A program made the translations under genes and the position numbers. The notes beneath the pieces are model-generated. The model was given only the letters and a program-made list of their open reading frames with translations. It ran no database searches and had not been told where the DNA came from. Shown here in pieces: positions 14,677-25,421 of a stretch of 64,000 nt of DNA. The DNA comes from Longimicrobiales bacterium (lineage in GTDB: Bacteria; Gemmatimonadota; Gemmatimonadetes; Longimicrobiales; Gaopeijiaceae), in contig CBDDCX010000007.1 in NCBI GenBank assembly GCA_965226375.1, forward strand, positions 256,001 through 320,000. The letters are read 5' to 3'. The number at the start of each line of letters is the position of its first letter. Positions within the stretch are counted from its first letter, which is position 1.

Positions 14677-15252
14677 TTATTCCCCGGATCGTTCTTCGCC
14701 CAGCAGCCGCGCAGTCTCGACCTGGCCAAGGCGTTCGAAGAACCGGTCGCCGAACGCCCGTAGCGTCTCGTTGTCCGGAAAGGCCGAGGACGGAATGGTC
14801 AGGAAGGAGTTGGCGCCCGAGTAGATGAGGAACGCCCCGTCCGACTCCTTGATGTCCTCGATGGCGCTCCACTTCACGAGCCATTCGTAGCCGGTGGTGG
14901 AGTCCAGGATGCCATCGTCCCGCAGCTCCACGCGATGAGGCCCGAAGATACCGTTGATGAGGCCGAGCTCGGCGACCTTTTTGATCTGGCGCTTCTGCGA
15001 ATGGCGAACGAGAGGCTTCAGCGCACCGACCAGGAGCGCGCCGGTGAACGCCATGACGAGGGCCCCCACGACCGATGCGCCGCCGATGAACAGGAGCAGA
15101 CTCATGAGCCCGACGATCACGGCGAACAGGGCCTGCATCTGCGTAAGTGCCTTCTTGGTCAGCTCCGAGTTCCAGGAGTGTGTGGCGTTGGCTGTAGCCC
15201 AGTCTTCAGGTGTGAACTCGAACTCGACCGTGATTGGGCCCGACTCTGGCAA
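14677..15252 (-). CDS. YcxB-like membrane protein (possible cassette gene)
   Basis: Two TM helices followed by a W-x-x-I...FLIY...IPSSAF YcxB-like C-terminus. Confidence 0.75.
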   Translation of the reverse strand: MPESGPITVEFEFTPEDWATANATHSWNSELTKKALTQMQALFAVIVGLMSLLLFIGGASVVGALVMAFTGALLVGALKPLVRHSQKRQIKKVAELGLINGIFGPHRVELRDDGILDSTTGYEWLVKWSAIEDIKESDGAFLIYSGANSFLTIPSSAFPDNETLRAFGDRFFERLGQVETARLLGEERSGE

Positions 15253-15331
15253 TTCCGGCCTCCCGACGGATGTGGGCCGACTGTCATGTGCTCTTGATAC
15301 TCAATTTACATGTGGGGCGGGTGGGTTGCGA

Positions 15332-15461
15332 TGATAACGGGGTCGCATGCTGAAGACACGGGGCGCCGCACGAGACTACGTATGATCTCGTTCCGACATA
15401 CGTATGCACGGAGTGAGTGATGTCTTAGCGCATCCCGCGACCCTTGCGTGTCCCGTTGCCC
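15332..15461. repeat. attC-like imperfect hairpin
   Basis: TAACGGGGTCGCATGCTGAAGACA pairs imperfectly with TGTCTTAGCGCATCCCGCGACCC...CCCGTTG. Confidence 0.5.
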
Positions 15462-15510
15462 CTGAGCAAGGTTCGCTGGCTCTTCCGAGGGGAAAGATTA
15501 ATGAGCAAAG

Positions 15511-16039
15511 GGGGTATTCCCCGCACTCCAGCCTCCACGCCCCCGACATAGCTCTCGTCCACTTGCACAACGCCGCTCAGCTGGTCGCGATCCGGTCGGA
15601 CCATGGCCCGGCGGAGCTTGTGGAGCCAGACCCACGCTGTCTTGTAGCTTCCCAGTCCGAGCACGCGCTGGAGCCCGAGAGCATTGGCTCCGTATTTCTG
15701 GCTCGTGAGCTCCCAGGCAGCGAGAAACCACAGACGCAGGGGCGAGCGCGTGCGGTGGAACACGGTTCCCGCCAGCACCGAGGTCTGCCTTCGACAGTGT
15801 GGGCAGACGAGACGCCCCCGCGATGCTCGCCAGACCTCTCCCAACCCGCCACAGCCCACGCACACAAACCCTTCCGGCCAGCGCAGACCCTCCACGTACT
15901 CCAGGCATGCCGCATCGTCGGGGAAGAACTCGTCCAGCTCCAGCCGCGTACGGGGATAGTCCACGCCGCCACGGAGCTGAGAAGCCGGAACCGCCATGAC
16001 CACAACATGTAGTGGGCGGTGGACTTAAGGCAATACCCC
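15511..16039 (-). mobile_element. Internally deleted IS1595-family (ISXO2-like) element
   Basis: Transposase N-terminus (RWPEGFVCxxC, CxxC Zn ribbon, YKTAWxWLHKLRRAM, VDESYVGG) truncated after GVRG. Ends are GGGGTATTCC / GCAATACCCC (9/10 inverted). No TSD seen. Confidence 0.8.
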
Positions 16040-16227
16040 ATATACCTCATACGTTCACGGCGCGGCGTCCGCAGATCTGGATTGTGACGGAGACATCGTC
16101 CGTTCGGTGTGAGCCGCCGCTGGCGGAATCCCGTGGCCACGCCTTCCTAACACAACTTGAAAGCACGCCCCCTGTGGGTACCGTGGAGTTGCGAAACGAC
16201 CATGGACCACAGCAGAGGGCGGCTCTC

Positions 16228-17319
16228 ATGAAGCGGAACACCAAGTATGTGGGACTCGACGTGCACCAGGCAATGACGGTGGCGACGGTTCGGGGCCAAG
16301 GGGGACGAGTGATCGCGCGCAGCGTGATCGAGACGGGGGACGCATCGATCACGGAGTTCTTCAGCGCGATGCGCGGGTCGGTGCACGTAGTGTTCGAAGA
16401 GGGAACCCAGGCGCAGTGGCTCTACGACCTACTGAGTCCTCGTGTGGATCGGGTGATCGTATGCGATCGCAGAGGCGAAAAGCGTTCGGGCAACAAGGGG
16501 GACCAGGTCGATGCCGACGAGCTGTCGGAGCGGTTGCGGTGTGGCGGGCTGCGCGCGGTATACCACGGCGCACACGGCCGATCTGATCTCAAGGAGCTGA
16601 CTCGAGCCTATCGCAACCTCGTCGAAGACGGCACGCGCGTGATGCTGCGGCTCAAGGCACTCTTCCGTGCGCGGGCGATCCGAACCACGGGCGGCGGAGT
16701 CTACCAGCCGAAGCAGCGCGGCGCCTGGCTCGCGCAGCTACCGGAGGGAGGAGCTCGTCTACGAGCCGAGACCCTGTACGCTCAGCTCGATGTGCTTCGG
16801 GCTCAGCGCAAGAAGACCAAGGCGGCCATGGTCGCCGAGGCGAAGCGTGATCCGGCCTTCGGGGTGCTCGAGACGATCCCCTACTTTGGGCCCGTGCGTA
16901 TCGCACTGTTGCTAGCAACCATGGGTACGCCGTGGCGCTTCCGCACGAAGCGCAACCTGTGGGCCTATGCCGGACTCGCCGTGGTCACGCGCTCGAGCTC
17001 CGACTACGAGTTGTTCGATGGGCGTCCTCGCCGGCGGCGGCGCCCTCCGCTCACTCGAGGGTTGAACCGCAACCACAATCGAGTCCTCAAGAATGTCTTC
17101 AAGGGCGCCGCCAACGTAGCCATTGGACGTCCGGGCCCATTCCTGGACTTCTATAACCGAATGCTCGAGCGCGGGATGCGCGAGGAGCTCGCCCGTGTGA
17201 CGCTGGCTCGCAAGCTCGCAGCGCTCACCCTTCGTCTACTCAAAACCGGAGAAGTCTTTGATCCGACGCAGCTGAGTCGACCCCAAACATTGAGGGGGGT
17301 TCATCGTCCTAGGGTGTAG
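16228..17319 (+). CDS. IS110-family DEDD recombinase/transposase
   Basis: YVGLDVH, FEEG, KGDQVDA, LETIPYFG, YAGLAVVTRSS, LARKL. Confidence 0.95.
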   Translation: MKRNTKYVGLDVHQAMTVATVRGQGGRVIARSVIETGDASITEFFSAMRGSVHVVFEEGTQAQWLYDLLSPRVDRVIVCDRRGEKRSGNKGDQVDADELSERLRCGGLRAVYHGAHGRSDLKELTRAYRNLVEDGTRVMLRLKALFRARAIRTTGGGVYQPKQRGAWLAQLPEGGARLRAETLYAQLDVLRAQRKKTKAAMVAEAKRDPAFGVLETIPYFGPVRIALLLATMGTPWRFRTKRNLWAYAGLAVVTRSSSDYELFDGRPRRRRRPPLTRGLNRNHNRVLKNVFKGAANVAIGRPGPFLDFYNRMLERGMREELARVTLARKLAALTLRLLKTGEVFDPTQLSRPQTLRGVHRPRV

Positions 17320-17720
17320 GGGTGCAGCGCATGACCTTCGATCCCTTGGAACGTCGAATCCCTGGACGACGGTGCGGGAGGCAGTCTCAAGCAAATCCGT
17401 ACGCCCGGCTCGCAGTCATGCCGAGGCACGATCCTAACTCCAGGCCCTTCCGCAGAACCCGAAGAAGTGTCAGGCCGGCCCCGAGGCTGAGTCTCAGATA
17501 GAACCATGGTTCGCGTCGTACGACCTAGGTCCACTCAATCAAGTCCAGACGGATCGACCATCCAAGTGAGGATCATCGTGGCCGACACGAAGACTGACTC
17601 ATCCAGCACACCACTCCCTGACGATCCGGTCATTCCAGCCAAGCGGAGGCTGAGTGCCAAGCCCAACACGGCTTCGCAGACAGCCGGGGCGGAGCCCGGC
17701 CTTGACACTCTCTTTCATAG
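17320..17720 (+). ncRNA. Putative bridge/seek RNA region of the IS1111-type element
   Basis: Non-coding end contains TCCTAAC (17432-38, equals the target left flank) and ATAGAAC (17498-504, equals the IS right end plus core). Confidence 0.55.
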
Positions 17721-17805
17721 AACCAATTTGCGATCCTGCTGCGCCCCGAGGATGCCAGATCGCGATAGCGCTACGCGAGTTTTCCGCAGCCATCGCTGGT
17801 TAGGG
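17721..17805 (-). repeat. attC-like site split by the IS110 element (other piece at 16145-16151)
   Basis: Rejoined CCTAACCAATTTGCGATCCTGCTGCG pairs with CGCAGCCATCGCTGGTTAGG, leaving extra-helical bases. Confidence 0.72.
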
Positions 17806-17836
17806 CGTAGACTCACGGGTCTGCGGTCGTGCTGGC

Positions 17837-18358
17837 TCAGGGCTCGTTACTGACTAGGAGGTCCGGCGCCGACGCATTTGATCCCGACTGCAGCTCCAAA
17901 GGGTTTCGCTTCGCCAGCGAAACGGTTGCGGCTGCCAACCCCGCGGTAACGGCCCCGTAGGAGGCAGCACCCGCAACAAGGGCAGTCAGCTGCAAGGCGA
18001 TAGGGATAGGGAGACCCAGTATACCTTCGGCCATCCTGACCGCGTCCGACAGGCTTGCGACCGCGATCGTACCCACTAGGGCCACGGCAGCCCCCACGAC
18101 GAAGCCCCACAATGCGGCTCGGTGGGCCGTCAAGTCATCGAGGGTTCGCCGTCCTTCCATCACTGACAGAAGACCGCCGAAACCCACACCGAGGACAAGC
18201 CCAGCGACCCCTGCTACGACACCGAGGCCCAGAGCCGAACTCAAGAACGAAGTCGTGGAGATCAAACCCCCGAGTGCCGTGCCAACGGCGCCAAGGGCGA
18301 TACCCCAGATGGTCCCGATCCCCAGGGCAGCTTTCAACTTCCTTGTCAGGTTTCCCAC
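17837..18358 (-). CDS. Hypothetical Gly/Ala-rich multi-TM membrane protein (cassette gene)
   Basis: Four hydrophobic segments, GGGAG RBS, ends ~30 bp before an attC-like site. Confidence 0.75.
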   Translation of the reverse strand: MGNLTRKLKAALGIGTIWGIALGAVGTALGGLISTTSFLSSALGLGVVAGVAGLVLGVGFGGLLSVMEGRRTLDDLTAHRAALWGFVVGAAVALVGTIAVASLSDAVRMAEGILGLPIPIALQLTALVAGAASYGAVTAGLAAATVSLAKRNPLELQSGSNASAPDLLVSNEP

Positions 18359-18419
18359 TGCTTCTCCCTACCGGCTAGCCTCTTCTACGCCCTAGCTAGT
18401 CGTTGTACTACGAAAACTC

Positions 18420-18456
18420 ATGTCCTATGACGCGCTCACTGACTCACGACGCGGAG
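18420..18456 (-). repeat. Degenerate attC-like arm
   Basis: ATGTCCTATGACGCGCTCACTGACTCACGACGCGGAG aligns with ATGTCCGATAACGGGCTCACGCGCTCCCGCGCGGAG at 20385; the core is mutated to GAC. Confidence 0.55.
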
Positions 18457-18660
18457 GTGGCGTAGCCACCGGAATGTCCGCGAAGCGGCCGAGCCGTTGC
18501 TCATCGTAAGATCCAAGCTGCCGTAGCGCGACATGCGCGGAGGGGCACTTCGGCGGAGGTGGTGGTGAGTACCGGCCTCATCCGACGGCGCAAGTTGCGT
18601 CCATTGGCGCCGACATCAAGGCGGCCTTGTCATAAAACAGATATCTGCCTATTAATTATC

Positions 18661-19026
18661 ATGCGTCGAAAACCGGGTGAGCTCATTCCGCTGGAAATAG
18701 AGATCCTTGAAGCCGCTGTGGCTCTCCAGCGGGAAGGCATCCCGGCCTTCCACGGTTATTCGCTCGCAAAGAGCATGAAGACCGACTCCGATCGCCGGAT
18801 GCTCACGGCCCACGGAACCCTATACCGCGCGCTTCATCGATTGCAGCGCGCAGATTTGCTCGAGGGGTTCTGGGAGGATCCTGTTGAGGCGGAGCAAGAA
18901 AGCCGCCCGCGCCGTCGTCTGTATCGGCTCACAGCGTTAGCGGTGGTCGCGCTCAGCCGCGCCCGAGCGCGGCAGCGCGCCAGCGGCGAACTACCTTCGC
19001 TAGAAGGTGGGCTGGAGGTTCCATGA
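18661..19026 (+). CDS. PadR-family transcriptional regulator
   Basis: HGYSLAK, GTLYRALHRL, RPRRRLYRLT. Upstream TTGTCA-N17-TATTAA with a CAGATATCTG palindrome. Confidence 0.88.
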   Translation: MRRKPGELIPLEIEILEAAVALQREGIPAFHGYSLAKSMKTDSDRRMLTAHGTLYRALHRLQRADLLEGFWEDPVEAEQESRPRRRLYRLTALAVVALSRARARQRASGELPSLEGGLEVP

Positions 19027-19739
19027 GCGCAGCCCGGCGGATCGCCGTGAACGTCGCACGCACCTGGGTGCATCTCTACACGAGCCGTATGCCGACGGAG
19101 TTGCGCGTGACCAGGCGCGCGGAGATCGATGCCGACCTTTGGGACCACGAGAAGGATGCGGAAGAAGGGGGTGTACCCCCGCTGGTCACTGCGCTGGAGA
19201 TCTTCCTGCGAACCTGTCTCGGCGTCCTGGACGACTTGAGCTGGCGTTTCGAAGCCCGTCAACCGGGAGTTGGCGCTTCACGAAAAGGAAGGAGTACCAT
19301 GATGGACTTCTCAGCAAGACAAACACGGTGGATGGGGATTCTCTCAGTCGCCGGCGGTGCGATCGTGATGCTGATGCTCGTGGTGATTCCTACCCTCCAG
19401 TCGTACTTCGCTTCGGCCGGAATTCCGCTGCCGCTCCCGACCCGCATCGTCATCGGTAGGTCCGCGTTCCTGACGGGCTATTGGTGGGCCTGCGTCGCGG
19501 GGATCGTCGCCTTTTCCCTGGCCGTTAGACAGCTCGACAAGATTCTGCGGGACACGATGCTCACCAGGGTCGCCGCCTTCTACGACGACGAGGTGGACAG
19601 CGCGGTGGAGGCGCTGCTCACGAAGATGGAGCCGATCATGATCGTCGGGCTGGGCGTTGTAGTGGGTGGACTGATTATGGCCATGTACTTACCGATGTTC
19701 GATGTTGGTCAACGCGGTGAAGTAAGACGTTGCTATTGA
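19023..19739 (+). CDS. PadR-partner membrane protein fused to PilC/GspF-like segments
   Basis: N-terminal WVHLYT...RRAEIDADLWDH...DDLSWR; C-terminal LPLPTRIVI and FYDDEVDSAVEALLTKMEPIMIV...MYLPMF. Confidence 0.7.
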   Translation: MSAARRIAVNVARTWVHLYTSRMPTELRVTRRAEIDADLWDHEKDAEEGGVPPLVTALEIFLRTCLGVLDDLSWRFEARQPGVGASRKGRSTMMDFSARQTRWMGILSVAGGAIVMLMLVVIPTLQSYFASAGIPLPLPTRIVIGRSAFLTGYWWACVAGIVAFSLAVRQLDKILRDTMLTRVAAFYDDEVDSAVEALLTKMEPIMIVGLGVVVGGLIMAMYLPMFDVGQRGEVRRCY

Positions 19740-19882
19740 CAGAGTTTCGGCACGATAACGAAGAACCTACCCGGCCAGCACGGAACCGTGCGAAGCAGTT
19801 GCGGGGAATCCTGGGCCAAATGGCGCCCGATGTCCTTAGTGGAGAGGCGCGAGATTGAGGACGACGCGGCGAGGTCTCTTAC

Positions 19883-20344
19883 CTAGGGACACGCGTCTAT
19901 CAGCGCGAGGAAGTCCCCTCGGAGTGAGTTGATCGTAGTCCGCCACATCTCCGGAATCTCGATCTCGCGACCCCGGCAGGCCAATCCGTGGTAGGTGTCC
20001 CATTCGGCGTCCCCCAGCACACCTATCTGATGCTGAACGTAGGCGTTCTCCATGTTCCGCCAGAACACCCGCCGCACGTTGAAGTATTGGAGCTGATCGA
20101 GGCCGCTTAATCGCTCTCGGAGCGAGTCGTTGCTGGCCCTGTACATGATCAGAGAGAGATCGGGGTCTGTCCCGATCACAAGCAAATACTCGTTAGATGC
20201 CCGAATCATCTCTTGGTACGTCGCCGCTCGAGAAGCGGCGGTGTTCTGGCGGATTTCGAGGCCGACGAAGACAAGGGAGACAATCACTGCGATGCCGCCG
20301 AAGACCTCGGTCAACGACGTTAGTCTCGAAGGTGCTTTTGCCAA
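19883..20344 (-). CDS. Hypothetical protein (cassette gene)
   Basis: AVIVSLVFVGLEIRQNT N-terminal TM motif; TTG start with GGAGG RBS. Confidence 0.8.
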   Translation of the reverse strand: MAKAPSRLTSLTEVFGGIAVIVSLVFVGLEIRQNTAASRAATYQEMIRASNEYLLVIGTDPDLSLIMYRASNDSLRERLSGLDQLQYFNVRRVFWRNMENAYVQHQIGVLGDAEWDTYHGLACRGREIEIPEMWRTTINSLRGDFLALIDACP

Positions 20345-20389
20345 GCCGGCCTCCTCTGGCTTCTTCGTGGGACGGCGAAAGCCCATGTC

Positions 20390-20537
20390 CGATAACGGGC
20401 TCACGCGCTCCCGCGCGGAGTGAGCGTCGGCGAACGGAGTGCCCCGAAGGGACGGGCCCGTTGGTCTCCACGATAGTGTCACAACAGGTAATGCGCGAAG
20501 GCGCGCCGAAGGGTCCGGCGGGAGAGCAGCGTTAACC
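20390..20537 (-). repeat. attC-like site (148 bp)
   Basis: TAACGGGCTCACGCGCTCCCGCGCGGA pairs imperfectly with TCCGGCGGGAGAGCAGCGTTA; 28 bp identical to 20828-20855. Confidence 0.75.
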
Positions 20538-20557
20538 GACGTACCGACCTAGCGTTC

Positions 20558-20785
20558 TCAGACGTGTCCGAACATTTGCTCGAAGAGTTCACGTGAACGC
20601 TGCAACCCTTCTTCGGTGAGGGCGACAGATTTCCTCTTCGAAATCGGATCTCCAATCATCCCTTTCTCATGGAGACGGTTTAGAGCCTCCCAGTCGAACC
20701 CCTGCCAGGAACGGATTCCGTCATGCAGCGTCAGCCACATCAAAGCCAGAACGGCCTCGTCGACTTTTGTCTCGTCGAATTCCAT
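20558..20785 (-). CDS. DUF6429-like small protein (cassette gene)
   Basis: DEAVLALMWL...WQGFDWEALNRLHEKGMIGDP...KSVALTEEG. Confidence 0.85.
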   Translation of the reverse strand: MEFDETKVDEAVLALMWLTLHDGIRSWQGFDWEALNRLHEKGMIGDPISKRKSVALTEEGLQRSRELFEQMFGHV

Positions 20786-20824
20786 AAAGTGCCATCCATG
20801 AACTCACTGTTCATCCAGTATGTC

Positions 20825-20868
20825 GTCTAACGGGCTCACGCGCTCCCGCGCGGAGAGCGGCGTTACGC
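20825..20868 (-). repeat. Very short attC-like site (44 bp)
   Basis: Minus strand reads GCGTAAC...GTTAGAC; the second box is a perfect GTTRRRY. Confidence 0.72.
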
Positions 20869-20886
20869 GACGCGCGTACGCGCAAA

Positions 20887-21141
20887 CTATCGATACACGT
20901 CTCGGCGGTGGCCAATCTTCACGACGATGACGACCTGGGCGTCATCGTCGACTTCGTACAAGACACGATGGGATCCCTGGCGTACCCGATACCGAGATCC
21001 ACTCGTAAGCTTCTCACAGCCACGAGGCCGGGGGTCCTCGGCCAGAGCATGGATGCGCTCAACGACCCGGCCGCGATCCGCTTCCTGGAGAGCTTTCAGT
21101 TCTTTGACGGCAGAGGGCTTGATCTGGAGATCATAGCTCAC
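20887..21141 (-). CDS. RelE/ParE-family toxin
   Basis: PRPRGCEKL, YRVRQGSHRVLYEVDD, KIGHRRDVYR. Confidence 0.93.
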   Translation of the reverse strand: MSYDLQIKPSAVKELKALQEADRGRVVERIHALAEDPRPRGCEKLTSGSRYRVRQGSHRVLYEVDDDAQVVIVVKIGHRRDVYR

Positions 21142-21364
21142 CGCTCTGCCTCATCTCCTGCAGCACATCGGAGAAGGAGAGGCTTGGCTCGTTCGCGCGT
21201 GCCTCAAACGCCTCGAGATCCTCTGCGTCTTCAGAGAGAATCCCGAGGACTGCCTCGTTCACGAGGTCGGATACACTTTGCTCCGTCTCGGCGGCTTTGA
21301 GTCGCAAGGCTCGATGTACTGAAGGAGAGAAGTAGACCGTCGTTCGCTTTGTTTTCGTGCTCAT
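21131..21364 (-). CDS. CopG/ribbon-helix-helix antitoxin
   Basis: KRTTVYF...HRALRLKAA...SDLVNEAV; overlaps the toxin gene. Confidence 0.88.
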   Translation of the reverse strand: MSTKTKRTTVYFSPSVHRALRLKAAETEQSVSDLVNEAVLGILSEDAEDLEAFEARANEPSLSFSDVLQEMRQSGEL

Positions 21365-21413
21365 GCTGCCACTATAGCGTTATAGCGCCACAACGTCCAG
21401 ACGTTTTTCTAGC

Positions 21414-21557
21414 GTGTCGCGTAACGGCCCCACTCCCGACACCCTTGTCTCAAAGCAGGCATTCAGCGCCCGTATTGCGACGTATGTCGGTATGGCCTTA
21501 TGTGCGACGTGGGGAATTCCGCACCGCACCGTCCAACTCCCCAGCCTCGGGAGGGGC
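21414..21557 (-). repeat. att-like site immediately 3' of the recombinase gene (partial hairpin)
   Basis: GTGTCGCGTAACGGCCCCACTCCCGA matches the array consensus and pairs with TCGGGAGGGGC at 21547; there is no outer GTT partner. Confidence 0.5.
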
Positions 21558-21613
21558 GCGCTCAGACTAGGCACATTACCAACGATCCGCCACCCGCCAC
21601 ACACAACTCCCGC

Positions 21614-22537
21614 CTACTCCTCGTCCTTCTCCTCAGGGCCCCCGAACAGCGTATCCGCAGGACTGATCACCTTTACCAGAGCTTGGTTCGCCACATGCGT
21701 GTAGATCTCGGTGGTCGCCGACTTGGCGTGTCCCAACAGCTGTTGGATGTAGCGTTGTTGCGTCCCACTCTCAACGAGGTGCGTTGCGAACGAGTGCCGC
21801 AGTATGTGTGGAGTGACCGTCCTCCGGATTCTGGCTCGCTCAGCGGCCTTCTTCACAACGCGTTGGAGGCTCCGAGCGTTGTAGTGCCGATCGGGCCTTT
21901 CTCCTGGAAACAGCCATTTGTCCAGACGCTCAGTCCGCGCGTAGTCCCTGAGAGCTTCGAGGGTCACGGCGGAGAGCATCACATACCGGTCCTTCCGCCC
22001 TTTTCCCTTTCGCACTCTGATCATGCCACGGTCGGACTCGATGTCAGTGACCTGGAGGCGGATCACTTCGCCGACGCGTAGACCGCCGGAGTAGAGCACC
22101 AGCAGCATCGCTCGGTGCTTCAAGTTGGTGACGGCGTCGATGAGGCGCCGAACCTCGTCGCGGCTCAGGACCTTCGGCAACGATTTGTCTCGTCGCGGCC
22201 GAGGCAGCTCGAGCTTGGCGACCCCTCTACGCAGCACCTTCGAATGCAGAAACTTGAGCGCGCTCACCGCCTGATTCACGTAACTATACGAGCAGCCCTC
22301 ACGCATCAGACGCAGCAGCCACGAACGCATTTCCTCGGTCGTGGCGTTGGGGTCAGCGCTCGTCCGTCCCAGATAGAAGCGTTTGACGTGTGATCCGTAC
22401 AGCCGGCGTGTCTGTCGGGAGAAGCCGCGAAGTCGCATTTCCTCGTCCATGCGATCGAGTTGGTCTCCCAGCCACTCGGGTGCGTCGCCAGTCTCGGTCC
22501 TTTTTCGGTCGCGGCCCGTCCCTCGTCTCTTCGCCAT
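21614..22537 (-). CDS. Tyrosine recombinase with N-terminal SAM-like domain, lacking the IntI-specific insertion
   Basis: YSGGLRVGE, KGRKDR, HILRHSFATH, LGH, TTEIYTH; catalytic set intact. Confidence 0.93.
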   Translation of the reverse strand: MAKRRGTGRDRKRTETGDAPEWLGDQLDRMDEEMRLRGFSRQTRRLYGSHVKRFYLGRTSADPNATTEEMRSWLLRLMREGCSYSYVNQAVSALKFLHSKVLRRGVAKLELPRPRRDKSLPKVLSRDEVRRLIDAVTNLKHRAMLLVLYSGGLRVGEVIRLQVTDIESDRGMIRVRKGKGRKDRYVMLSAVTLEALRDYARTERLDKWLFPGERPDRHYNARSLQRVVKKAAERARIRRTVTPHILRHSFATHLVESGTQQRYIQQLLGHAKSATTEIYTHVANQALVKVISPADTLFGGPEEKDEE

Positions 22538-22651
22538 CACGGACGCTCCCACCGGGGGCAGGGCGATGCCATGGCTCTTTCGGCGGGCGTACGGGCCGGA
22601 CACGGCGATACGCCCCGAACCGGACGCGGCCAATCCCCAATGACGGCTTCC

Positions 22652-22686
22652 GCGATAACCGAGCCTACTATACAATTAGTTGACAC
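22652..22686 (+). other. Candidate attI-like site upstream of the recombinase
   Basis: AT-rich GATAAC...ATTAGTTGACAC, matching the array motif NTTA-NNN-GACAY in the opposite orientation. Confidence 0.4.
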
Positions 22687-22719
22687 TCGACGGATCCGCC
22701 GTCTGCTTCAGGAAGCCCA

Positions 22720-24438
22720 ATGCTCATTGGACTGATCGCCGTGCTCTTGACCCTGGGGTCCTTGACGGCCCCGGGACACGCTGACCGGGCAACCCTCGCT
22801 GCGGGGGATTTGCAGGGCGAGATCCACGATCTCGTCGCCCAAGGAGATCTGGAGGCCGTCCGGGATCTACTGACCGAGGACCCCACACTACTCGAGTCGA
22901 GAGATGGCCTCGGCCACACCCCGCTCCATACGGCGGCGATCGAGGAGAACCCGGCGATCGTGCGCTTCCTGCTCGAGGCGGGGGCGGAGGTGGATGCCCG
23001 GAATGATCGCCAGCGCACGGCCATCTGGTTGGCCGCGTGGCAAAACGACGGGGTAGAGGTCGTCTCCCTCTTGCTGGCTCACGGGGCAGATATCGAGGCC
23101 GTTGGTTTCCTGGGCCAAACGCCTCTGTCGGCGGCCATCGTGGGTCGAAGGCATGTGGTCGTCGATGTGCTTCTCGACCAAGGGGCCTCACTTCCAACCG
23201 AAACGGGCCCCCGGATCGAACTCATGTATCGCGCAGTTACGCACGGCAACCTCCGGGTGTTCGAACGGATGTTCGAGGTCCTTCCAACCCTCGATCCCGC
23301 GAGCGAAGAGGCGGCCGACTTACTTTGGGGTGCGGCCGAGGGTGGCTCGGGGGCGATCATGGAACGCCTTCTCGCGACCGGCATCGACCCCGACTCGCCG
23401 GATGCCTACCAAGATCGGCCCATTCATACCACGAGTCAGAGCGGGTTCACCGAGGCGACCCTGGCGCTGATCGGGCGGGGAGCCGACCTGAACCGGCGAA
23501 ACCTGACGGGTGACTCTCCCTACAACCTCGCGGTGGCGTACGAACACACCGAACTAGCCGCACGGCTGACGGAGTTGGGAGCGGATTCGGGTCCCCCTGA
23601 GCCTCCCGTTTTACAAGGCGACTATCTGGGCGAAACGCTTCCGGGCGGGGAGCCCGTGGTGTTTGCTCCGGGCATTGTCTCGAGGGAGGGTTCACAGAGC
23701 GTTCACGCGACGACCGTCTTTTCTCGGGACGGTTCAGAGGTGTACTGGTCGGACGCTTGGCAGGCCCCGATCTCATATATGAAGCGGGTGGATGGTCGCT
23801 GGACGATGCCGGCCCATGTCCCGTTCACGACCGGATACATCGACGACATTCCGATGTTCTCCCCGGATGAGAAGCGACTGTATTTCCTGTCGTCCATGCC
23901 GATCGACGGCGGCGAGGCCAGTAATCGCGAATACCTCTGGTACGTCGAGCGGGAGAGCCCGGAGGACCCGTGGTCCGAGCCCATTCCCGGGCCCGCCGCG
24001 ATCAACGCGGTCCCCCTCCATTGGCAGTTCGCGATCGCGCCCAACGGAGATTTCTACCTACCGGCCGCGACCGTAGGAGGGCAGGGCAGGGACATTCATG
24101 TCTCCCGGTTGGTGGACGGCGAATACCAGAGTGTGGAGCGAATCGAAGGCCCGCTGAACACATCGGGCGATGAGCACATGCCGTTCATCGCGCCGGACGA
24201 GAGTTATATGCTGTTCGCCGCCCGGAATCGCCCCGGCACGGACGAACACTTCCGGCTCTACGTCAGCTTCCGGGGGTCGGACGGTTCGTTCCAGGAGCCG
24301 GAGCTCCTTCCTGAACGTATCACCGGAGGATGGGACCAGATCTGTCCGGTGGTGACTCCCGATGGCCGGTACCTCTTCTACATCTCAGGGAATGACGTTC
24401 GCTGGGTGAGTACGGAGTTCGTCGAGGGCCTTCGTTGA
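22720..24438 (+). CDS. Secreted ankyrin-repeat protein with C-terminal PD40/TolB-like propeller
   Basis: Signal peptide; GHTPLHTAA and GQTPLSAA repeats; PMFSPD, PFIAPD and PVVTPDG repeats. Confidence 0.88.
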   Translation: MLIGLIAVLLTLGSLTAPGHADRATLAAGDLQGEIHDLVAQGDLEAVRDLLTEDPTLLESRDGLGHTPLHTAAIEENPAIVRFLLEAGAEVDARNDRQRTAIWLAAWQNDGVEVVSLLLAHGADIEAVGFLGQTPLSAAIVGRRHVVVDVLLDQGASLPTETGPRIELMYRAVTHGNLRVFERMFEVLPTLDPASEEAADLLWGAAEGGSGAIMERLLATGIDPDSPDAYQDRPIHTTSQSGFTEATLALIGRGADLNRRNLTGDSPYNLAVAYEHTELAARLTELGADSGPPEPPVLQGDYLGETLPGGEPVVFAPGIVSREGSQSVHATTVFSRDGSEVYWSDAWQAPISYMKRVDGRWTMPAHVPFTTGYIDDIPMFSPDEKRLYFLSSMPIDGGEASNREYLWYVERESPEDPWSEPIPGPAAINAVPLHWQFAIAPNGDFYLPAATVGGQGRDIHVSRLVDGEYQSVERIEGPLNTSGDEHMPFIAPDESYMLFAARNRPGTDEHFRLYVSFRGSDGSFQEPELLPERITGGWDQICPVVTPDGRYLFYISGNDVRWVSTEFVEGLR

Positions 24439-24472
24439 TCGGTGGAAACGGCCAGGGCCGAATCGGACCTAG

Positions 24473-24895
24473 CTAATCCCCCCAGGGATTGAGAACAGGC
24501 ACGCCCCGGTCAGCGTAGTCGCCAGCGTTGCGGGTGACCAACGTCAGGTCATGTACCTGGGCGGTGGCCAGCATGAGCCCGTCCACCACGGGCAGTTCTC
24601 TCCCGACGCGCCTTCCCTGGGCAGCCAAGCGGCCCCACGCGAGAGCCACGGCGTCATCGACGGCGAGCACGCGTCCCCGGAATCGTGGGCCCAGGTCCTG
24701 CTCCAGCCACTCCGTGAGCACTTCCTTGCGGCGCCCGGGGGCCATGAGCGCCACGCCGTTCGCAATCTCTCCCAACACGAGGACACTGATGGCGAGGTCC
24801 AGGGGGGTGTGATCTCGGAGCCACTCCACCACGCGCGGGTGCGGGGCCGGGCGCGCCGGCTCTGAGAGCACGTTGGTGTCCAGCAGATATCGCAC
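24473..24895 (-). CDS. vapC: VapC/PIN-domain toxin
   Basis: YLLDTNVLSE, DGLMLATA, LVTRN. Confidence 0.92.
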   Translation of the reverse strand: MRYLLDTNVLSEPARPAPHPRVVEWLRDHTPLDLAISVLVLGEIANGVALMAPGRRKEVLTEWLEQDLGPRFRGRVLAVDDAVALAWGRLAAQGRRVGRELPVVDGLMLATAQVHDLTLVTRNAGDYADRGVPVLNPWGD

Positions 24896-24952
24896 AGTAG
24901 AGTCCTGAGTTGGGAGTCCGGCGTGCCACCGAGGGCGCCTAAGCACCGCCCT

Positions 24953-25210
24953 CTAAAGCGACACGTCCCGTCCGACGTCTCGGGACCGCTCCAGAACCAG
25001 GGTGCCATCCGCCATCGCTTCTGCGAGAGGAGATGCCTTCAGGAAGGAGACCAGGTCGCCCGGCTCGGCCAACTTCTCGTATTCCTCCGCGCTGAGAATC
25101 ACGACGGCCTTACGGCCGTGGCGGGTCACGAGCTGCGGGCCCTCAGAGCGAGCGCGGCGGACCAGCTCGCTGAACCGATTCTTGGCATCTTCGAGTTTCC
25201 ATCTCGTCAT
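24953..25210 (-). CDS. Phd/YefM-family antitoxin
   Basis: WKLEDAKNRFSELV...PQLVTRHG. Confidence 0.92.
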   Translation of the reverse strand: MTRWKLEDAKNRFSELVRRARSEGPQLVTRHGRKAVVILSAEEYEKLAEPGDLVSFLKASPLAEAMADGTLVLERSRDVGRDVSL

Positions 25211-25239
25211 CGCGTCCTCATCTAGTCACTTTGGCCTGA

Positions 25240-25272
25240 TCTGAGTCTGGCTAGTCTAGCTAGATGTGTCAA
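25240..25272 (-). promoter_or_regulatory. Putative sigma70 promoter of the phd-vapC pair with palindromic operator
   Basis: Minus strand TTGACA-N17-CAGACT; the spacer contains the palindrome TCTAGCTAGA. Confidence 0.55.
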
Positions 25273-25421
25273 TGGTGGCAGTGGCGTCGCTACAAGTTCG
25301 CCTCGATCGCGGGCGGGAGAATGCCCTGACGGGACCCAGAATATCAGACGCACGATTTCTCTACGTATGTTTGGAATCGAAACATACGTACGTCTCCGAA
25401 GGACTTGATCGCCCGGTACCG

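Follow-up and report, generated by a model that had tools for sequence, protein, structure and literature searches.

A 64,000-nucleotide (nt) stretch of a Longimicrobiales genome (G000:C7:256001-320000, where G000 is the genome under study; the whole stretch is referred to here as the window, and positions are given in its coordinates) carries an array of gene cassettes that works like an integron, yet is not an integron of the IntI type. Judged by its sequence, this array is real, sedentary, integron-like, and partly decayed, and we put the probability at about three in four that it is an integron-like platform whose cognate integrase is the neighboring tyrosine recombinase, a Xer-like enzyme with neither the insertion typical of IntI (insertion-less) nor an N-terminal HARP-like domain (HARP-less); catalysis, we infer, is performed by this neighbor. 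The cassettes are co-oriented and bounded by hairpin sites with RYYYAAC/GTTRRRY-like ends (partly decayed in the window), an attI predicted by pattern lies beside the integrase gene, and cassettes have moved as units with a G|TT crossover. Among the features that mark an IntI, the recombinase has the catalytic residues; it has neither the insertion (I2) near patch III nor a place in the IntI clade. An array without an IntI-type integrase suggests a second, simpler way of capturing genes.

A preliminary description of this DNA had reported an intact recombinase gene without the IntI insertion, and this proved correct. The open reading frame (ORF) at positions 21614 to 22537 is intact, its patch III region (KGRKDR...WLF) measures 33 amino acids (aa), and the protein aligns to VchIntIA (2a3v) in two separate pieces (residues 30 to 197 with 9 to 178 and residues 217 to 295 with 240 to 318), so that approximately 40 residues are missing at the site of the IntI insertion. 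The protein stays below the cut-off of TIGR02249 (205 versus 265 bits) and, just barely, below that of NF040815 (218.8 versus 220), as well as below those of the XerC and XerD models (TIGR02224, 177 versus 335; TIGR02225, 184 versus 330). Its predicted model (pLDDT, 88) has a plain two-domain fold in which residues 1 to 20 are unstructured and no extra helix is present between residues 202 and 221; the best structural matches were XerA and VchIntIA, with archaeal XerA (4a8e) being the closest solved protein in both sequence and fold. All catalytic residues (R154, K179, H244, R247, H270, and Y279) are in place and, among 116 homologs, K179 is nearly invariant and the other five are invariant. 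Going by a dN/dS ratio of ~0.18 relative to the homolog in genome G251, the recombinase is under purifying selection.

In a tree of 167 proteins, IntI forms a clade of its own (13 rows; support, 100) and the window recombinase falls in a separate clade of 55 rows (support, 99), no member of which has a HARP-like N terminus; this is a quick tree with SH-aLRT support only, which does not settle the deeper branching, including whether the lineage predates IntI. Most other array-linked relatives do carry the HARP-like N terminus. Neither Pfam nor a profile of our own (built from 49 relatives, seeded from this order, and unreliable for Bacteroidota) detected the domain in the window recombinase; with the same profile, no clear stand-alone copy was found in the genome (best E value, 0.064). 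PF07443 was found in 11 of the 116 homologs at an E value of ≤0.05. The clade of the window recombinase, without IntI insertion and HARP alike and with a site geometry of its own (a 5-nt offset, described below), is well supported. Named close homologs come from Gemmatimonadota, and their distribution is patchy (52/201 genomes of the order at an E value of ≤1e-40 and 105/314 of the family, transposase-linked forms included). Two separate Xer-like genes are located elsewhere in the genome. A metagenome scan for the recombinase returned distant homologs only, and the ESM Atlas gave generic integrase clusters and nothing more specific.

Some further observations concern these recombinase genes. 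Approximately 30 nt upstream of the start codon, a short motif (window positions ~22560 to 22575) is kept in several HARP-less loci and is possibly a regulator site or a coupled leader ORF. The recombinase genes at L292, L302, and L303 (G302 and G301) are split, always at the HxLRH codons, by multi-integrase elements that we take to be RIT-like, and a C-terminal recombinase fragment lies beside a transposase gene at G000 C6:226546-226812.

The preliminary description had left a choice between a non-IntI recombinase lineage that runs its own cassette system and an orphan attC cluster that lies beside an unrelated recombinase by chance; we favor the former and reject the latter, which seems highly improbable. 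Such neighbors are on record, since, according to the part of Cury et al. (PMC4889954) available to us, 50 of 18,808 non-IntI recombinases lay near attC sites and were judged not to be IntI, and this genome contains other orphan clusters. However, across 45 insertion-less loci, 128 sites were found in 338,747 bp downstream of the recombinase gene versus 2 in 333,922 bp upstream; side and orientation are fixed, the head site is conserved, and an 84% identical homolog at a different locus in G251 is followed by this head and this site family. Both upstream sites belong to a single locus (L080, G094:C3) and are in reversed orientation. A site was present in 24 of the 28 loci with at least 5 kb of downstream sequence (two or more sites in 19/28), and an upstream site was present in 0/39 loci with at least 5 kb of upstream sequence. 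At transposase-linked homologs, no sites were found (4/4 loci). Of 122 distant loci, the 31 with enough downstream DNA, largely from Bacteroidota or metagenomes, contained 23 sites in 153,938 bp downstream versus 1 in 90,999 bp upstream. Because related genomes among the 45 loci, which were top hits with a preference for long contigs, are not independent, we give no P value; the strict site detector missed site E and made one false call in the window, which is counted within the 128. Two of the comparisons that, according to the preliminary description, could have refuted such a system did not do so: homologs are strongly tied to downstream arrays, and gene content and gene order both vary across relatives.

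The head of the array is marked by a site 190 bp past the recombinase stop codon, 3' of the co-oriented gene. It had been taken for an attC-type hairpin, and we reassign it as the attI-like head; it is similar to the L' arm found in cassette sites of this clade, and its crossover would be at G|TT, between positions 21425 and 21424. A G|TTA head within 700 nt of the recombinase stop codon was found by pattern in 28/45 loci. A second candidate attI (22646 to 22690) was dropped, as it has the look of a divergent promoter region and is not followed by an array. Elsewhere in the genome, a second array of the same family (G000:C8:57289-65180) has a conserved head region without a recombinase. In two mini-arrays (G000:C8:483779 and G000:C5:107669), a bare 18-bp head-site core directly abuts the end of an ordinary chromosomal gene, at its stop codon; in relatives, which are only ~80% identical, the core and the cassettes are both absent from these spots.

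As to mobility, the copy of cassette 1 in G251 is preceded by a hairpin site instead of the head site and is followed by different DNA. Homology between the two copies breaks at the R' boxes (G|TT) and includes the downstream site, of which site F in the window is a deleted form. The R'' box of site F matches the start of cassette 1 perfectly and, in a set of 74 cassettes that follow one another downstream of insertion-less recombinases, the cassette's own R'' is a perfect complement of its three variable starting bases in 59, versus 8/74 for the integrated pairing; the corresponding numbers for an IntI control were 27/34 and 3/34. By sequence comparison, cassettes span the TTA, the gene, and the downstream hairpin up to the G, they move as units that break at G|TT, and they are lined up behind the head site. 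A mirror-image attC, with cleavage of the top strand and a hairpin that accompanies the downstream gene, was rejected, since the site downstream of cassette 1 travels with this cassette. Among 26 chosen ORFs from HARP-less arrays, 9 had Pfam hits, mostly to toxin-antitoxin-type or small domains. The membrane-protein genes at 17837 to 18358 (in an IntI-type cassette) and at L144:10113-10631 (in a HARP-less-type cassette of G418) are related (36% over 80 aa); cargo families are therefore common to both systems.

The sites themselves fall into two families. In a leave-genome-out nearest-neighbor test on 128 insertion-less-type sites from 29 genomes and 49 IntI-adjacent sites from 10 (four genomes hold both systems), 127/128 and 48/49, respectively, were classified correctly. 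Insertion-less-type sites have 11-bp arms (the outer arm with G in 121/128 and A in 115/128), an uninterrupted L stem, and no fixed L'' bulge, that is, they lack the extrahelical L'' bases of an attC; by a crude alignment, a first bulge on the L'' arm is found in 45/46 IntI-type sites versus 42/109 and 8/35 in two insertion-less groups. They are also longer (median, 145 versus 100 nt), and their L stems pair at 7.97 of 9 positions, versus 5.48 when arms are swapped between genomes. After removal of 7 doubtful sites and addition of 20 found by motif, the spacers were seen to be offset by 5 nt in 30 of 35 sites from 6 genomes in the HARP-less subfamily, versus 2 to 3 nt in 95/109 other insertion-less sites, so the 5-nt offset tracks the HARP-less clade. 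The HARP-less site pattern occurred in 23 of the 314 genomes of the family; 8 of these had at least three copies, G418 gave 31 matches, and no HARP-less-type site was found at IntI loci (10/10), including those of genomes rich in such sites. Rfam gave zero matches in the window or in 4 distant loci.

In the window, the repeats are where the preliminary description had placed them, though not all are the related hairpins it supposed. Those at 18420, 20390 to 20537, and 20825 to 20868 form one family, with ~7 further copies on other contigs of the genome, and those at 15332 and 21414 are nearer in score to that family than to the IntI type, if weakly. The repeat at 16146/17721 to 17805 is instead an IntI-type attC split by IS110, and the weaker candidate at 19753 to 19883 fits neither family.

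How could a bare Xer-like enzyme use such sites? Arms are spaced as in Xer sites both in the head site and in the R''/L'' half of each cassette site; in the R'/L' half, the place of the break, the spacer measures 11 nt, which would make this half unusable as a duplex. The recombinase would bind 11-bp arms (TTA-NNN-G-M-M-A) spaced 6 to 7 bp apart, as Xer enzymes do. The bottom strand would fold, such that the R'/L' half pairs with the R''/L'' half and its 6-nt spacer, leaving ~5 nt looped out on the cleaved strand. This folded strand would be the substrate, one strand would be exchanged with the head site, and replication would resolve the resulting junction. We somewhat favor the idea that the second cleavage is blocked by the bulge of the overlong spacer and not by an I2 helix that holds an extrahelical L'' base (a contact described for IntI in the accessible part of PMC4792948). 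That spacer asymmetry as such would be unique to the insertion-less system was rejected, since IntI-adjacent sites are also offset.

The neighbor might also be the cognate enzyme but act on double-stranded DNA (or an extruded cruciform) through two Xer-style strand exchanges, with the hairpin being secondary. The 11-6/7-11 geometry of the head site and the R''/L'' half would suit such a route, as would three bare 11-6-11 junctions without a hairpin in G257 and the lack of an I2 or HARP to handle single strands; IntI itself, as described in the sections of PMC4792948 at hand, keeps a two-exchange pathway on duplex sites. We nevertheless think this quite unlikely: the break is observed at R', where the spacer is 11 nt, the spacers of partner sites are not homologous, and a duplex R'/L' site would need neither the match of the distal R'' to the cassette start (59/74) nor the covariation of the L stems. 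The G257 junctions (locus L241, C3, ~2287455, 2288984, and 2291638) are short 11-6-11 duplex sites with an identical 6-bp spacer, and the left arm of one matches the cassette start fully. A pattern search for further short 11-6-11 sites gave zero matches with a pattern that was too strict, as it missed the three known G257 sites as well.

Several observations weigh against the neighboring recombinase as cognate integrase, and some of these would favor a canonical IntI that exchanges the strands in trans, leaving the insertion-less recombinase an accessory (for cassette creation, binding, or regulation) or a relic at the array head. G000 carries such an IntI on contig C4 (308.6 bits), which has no array of its own, an IntI above the cut-off is present in all eight array-bearing HARP-less genomes tested (G000, G190, G251, G257, G302, G390, G407, and G418; 13/40 in a broader genome set), and one IntI-type cassette (17724 to 18395, with site C) is located within the array. 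Moreover, IntI is structure specific and sequence tolerant (PMC4889954, in the part available), and I2 is regarded in the literature as a requirement for attC recombination. All six IntI-free array genomes lie outside the HARP-less clade; arrays persist in G251, G257, and G302, where the recombinase gene is broken, and in G256 and G250, where none was found. No site was found in 4/28 loci with long downstream DNA or in 6/12 HARP-less loci, the latter each with only 0.3 to 2.6 kb of downstream contig. Within the HARP-less family, covariation is weak (6.89 versus 5.93), and IntI-adjacent sites of this order have an offset of 2 to 3 nt in 30/46 cases. In contigs from 4 runs, each of a different study, the array is almost the same; their joints are repeat to repeat or a single 601-nt deletion, and none is cassette precise. 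Finally, the choice of loci and the relatedness of genomes mentioned above apply here as well.

Even so, we consider action of IntI in trans unlikely. It leaves the segregation of sites unexplained, as the families do not mix at IntI heads, and the L'' bulge present in 45/46 IntI-type sites is missing from the insertion-less ones. In sister lineages, long arrays are maintained without an IntI match: among genomes with at least two sites, 6/11 have none, one of which is a single contig at 97% completeness. The recombinase, for its part, keeps all catalytic residues and is under purifying selection. The preliminary description had named a canonical IntI elsewhere in the genome as a possible explanation of the sites; the C4 IntI does exist, and a handful of IntI-type remnants are scattered over G000, but no array was found beside this IntI, and IntI-adjacent sites in relatives belong to a different family. 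The C4 IntI probably did place the one IntI-type cassette, which would have entered at a secondary site inside the array.

Beyond the window, we see an even chance that there is a widespread second integron class without I2, of which this clade also lacks an accessory DNA-structure domain: a bare Xer-like enzyme would achieve one-strand, directional capture from site geometry alone, through the oversized spacer loop on the cleaved strand, and might work on short duplex sites as well. Both the theory of integrons and their detection are built on the I2 insertion, with IntI being defined by its extra domain (Ghaly 2021, Ghaly 2022, and Neron 2022, in the parts available). We found no description of insertion-less cassette systems in a literature search that left subscription papers mostly uncovered, and such proteins may figure in the supplements to Cury 2016 and Smyshlyaev 2021. 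In the available text of Escudero et al. (PMC4792948), the origin of I2 is presented as a chicken-and-egg problem of how attC was selected before the domain that reads attC. With an insertion-less enzyme that has hairpin cassettes of its own, this problem can be put to a direct test using two short sites and a 307-aa protein; such an enzyme also offers a smaller recombinase of the structure-guided kind and implies that a gene-capture system present in many genomes of the order and in Bacteroidota escapes current tools. If a second class without I2 is real, it would show in living form the stage of integron evolution that preceded I2, and many "orphan" attC clusters would be explained.

TABLE 1 Features of the array and its flanks in the window, listed from the recombinase gene to the tail, followed by the upstream genes
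Feature	Position	Strand	Remarks
Tyrosine recombinase, 307 aa	21614-22537	-	Phage_int_SAM_4 and Phage_integrase domains; no IntI insertion; no N-terminal HARP-like domain
attI-like double-stranded head site	21414-21442	-	11-bp L arm (21432-21442), 7-bp spacer, 11-bp R arm (21414-21424)
Cassette 1: RHH antitoxin (21131-21364) and RelE/ParE toxin (20887-21141)	20831-21424	-	94% identical copy in G251
Site F, attC-like, HARP-less family, 44 nt	20825-20868	-	Internal deletion of a 143-nt site
Cassette 2: DUF6429 gene (20558-20785)	20396-20830	-	
Site E, attC-like, 148 nt	20390-20537	-	6-nt spacer on R'' side, 11-nt spacer on R' side
Cassette 3: hypothetical gene (19883-20386), no Pfam hit	19883-20395	-	Own site degenerate
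Candidate D2	19753-19883		AAC end present; fits neither site family; not confirmed
Inverted passenger: PadR gene and coupled ORF with PilC/T2SSF fragments	18559-19739	+	
Site D, HARP-less family, cut down	18420-18535	-	R' box mutated, R'' half missing
IntI-type cassette: membrane-protein gene (17837-18358)	17724-18395	-	Start (18385-18395) complementary to R'' of site C
Site C, IntI-type attC	16145-17805	-	Interrupted by IS110 (16148-17723)
IS1595 remnant	15511-16039	-	28-nt inverted repeats
Site A, degenerate terminal site	15332-15450	-	R' box is junction with chromosomal backbone; no proper R'' end
ycxB-like gene	14677-15252	-	Chromosomal backbone, not a cassette
Ankyrin/PD40 gene (+) and vapBC pair (-)	22720-25210		In the same 10-kb insertion, upstream of the recombinase

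The features of the array and its flanks are collected in Table 1. Relative to three close genomes, ~10 kb between ycxB and imuB (15337 to approximately 25360 to 25420) replaces unrelated stretches of 1.4 to 4.1 kb. The ycxB-like gene, previously listed as a cassette, is syntenic in 3/3 close relatives, and it belongs to the backbone, because homology extends past it, up to 15335 to 15336, within the R' box of site A, for two of these relatives and up to 15320 for the other. The IS110, the IS1595 remnant, and the inverted PadR operon, all inside the array, had gone unlisted. Site E is the sole full-length attC-like site in the window. No cassette sites were detected around the ankyrin gene and the vapBC pair, and a search for a cassette promoter (Pc) gave two weak sigma-70-like matches, neither of which is clearly Pc. 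The ORF coupled to PadR (19023 to 19739) is a chimera with two separate PilC/T2SSF fragments, and a 601-nt deletion runs across the PadR operon in two other samples. IS110-family elements target attC; in this genome, IS110 is present in five full, almost identical copies, two of which lie in IntI-type attC sites with the same 22 flanking bases. A palindrome (TACGTAT-N15-ATACGTA) at 25362 to 25391 recurs inside site A (15376 to 15406), at ~5 places in the genome altogether, and also at the syntenic spot in G256.

Among known systems, the window recombinase comes close to NF040815, and the "integron-like" subgroup of simple tyrosine recombinases, in which the insertion is not fully conserved and yet is essential for integron function, is another near counterpart (Smyshlyaev 2021, PMC8138268, in the part available); unlike the window recombinase, the insertion-less members of that subgroup are given no cassette arrays or function there. 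With XerA, XerC, and XerD acting on dif, it has in common the 11-bp arms, the 6- to 7-bp spacer, and the closest solved fold; it differs from Xer resolvases in being patchy and in heading variable cassette arrays, the genome having its two other Xer-like genes. Xer enzymes can exchange one strand pair with folded single-stranded phage DNA, as described for CTX-phage integration in sources available in part. Insertion-less recombinases paired with transposases have the same two Pfam domains, 44 to 48% identity, and the same 33-aa patch III, but they sit on separate tree branches with a transposase gene next to them and no arrays in 4/4 loci; we presume these transposases to be IS91-like. The HARP-domain insertion-less array recombinases differ by their N-terminal HARP-like domain. 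With sedentary chromosomal integrons, above all those in which intI is co-oriented with the cassettes, the array shares promoterless small-gene cassettes with toxin-antitoxin pairs, R''...R' ends with AAC/GTT and a G|TT crossover, cassette starts complementary to their own R'', a head site beside the integrase gene, and orphan clusters elsewhere, whereas it is set apart from them by a recombinase without I2 and outside the IntI clade, 11-bp Xer-like arms, longer sites without an L'' bulge, and the 5-nt offset of its clade.

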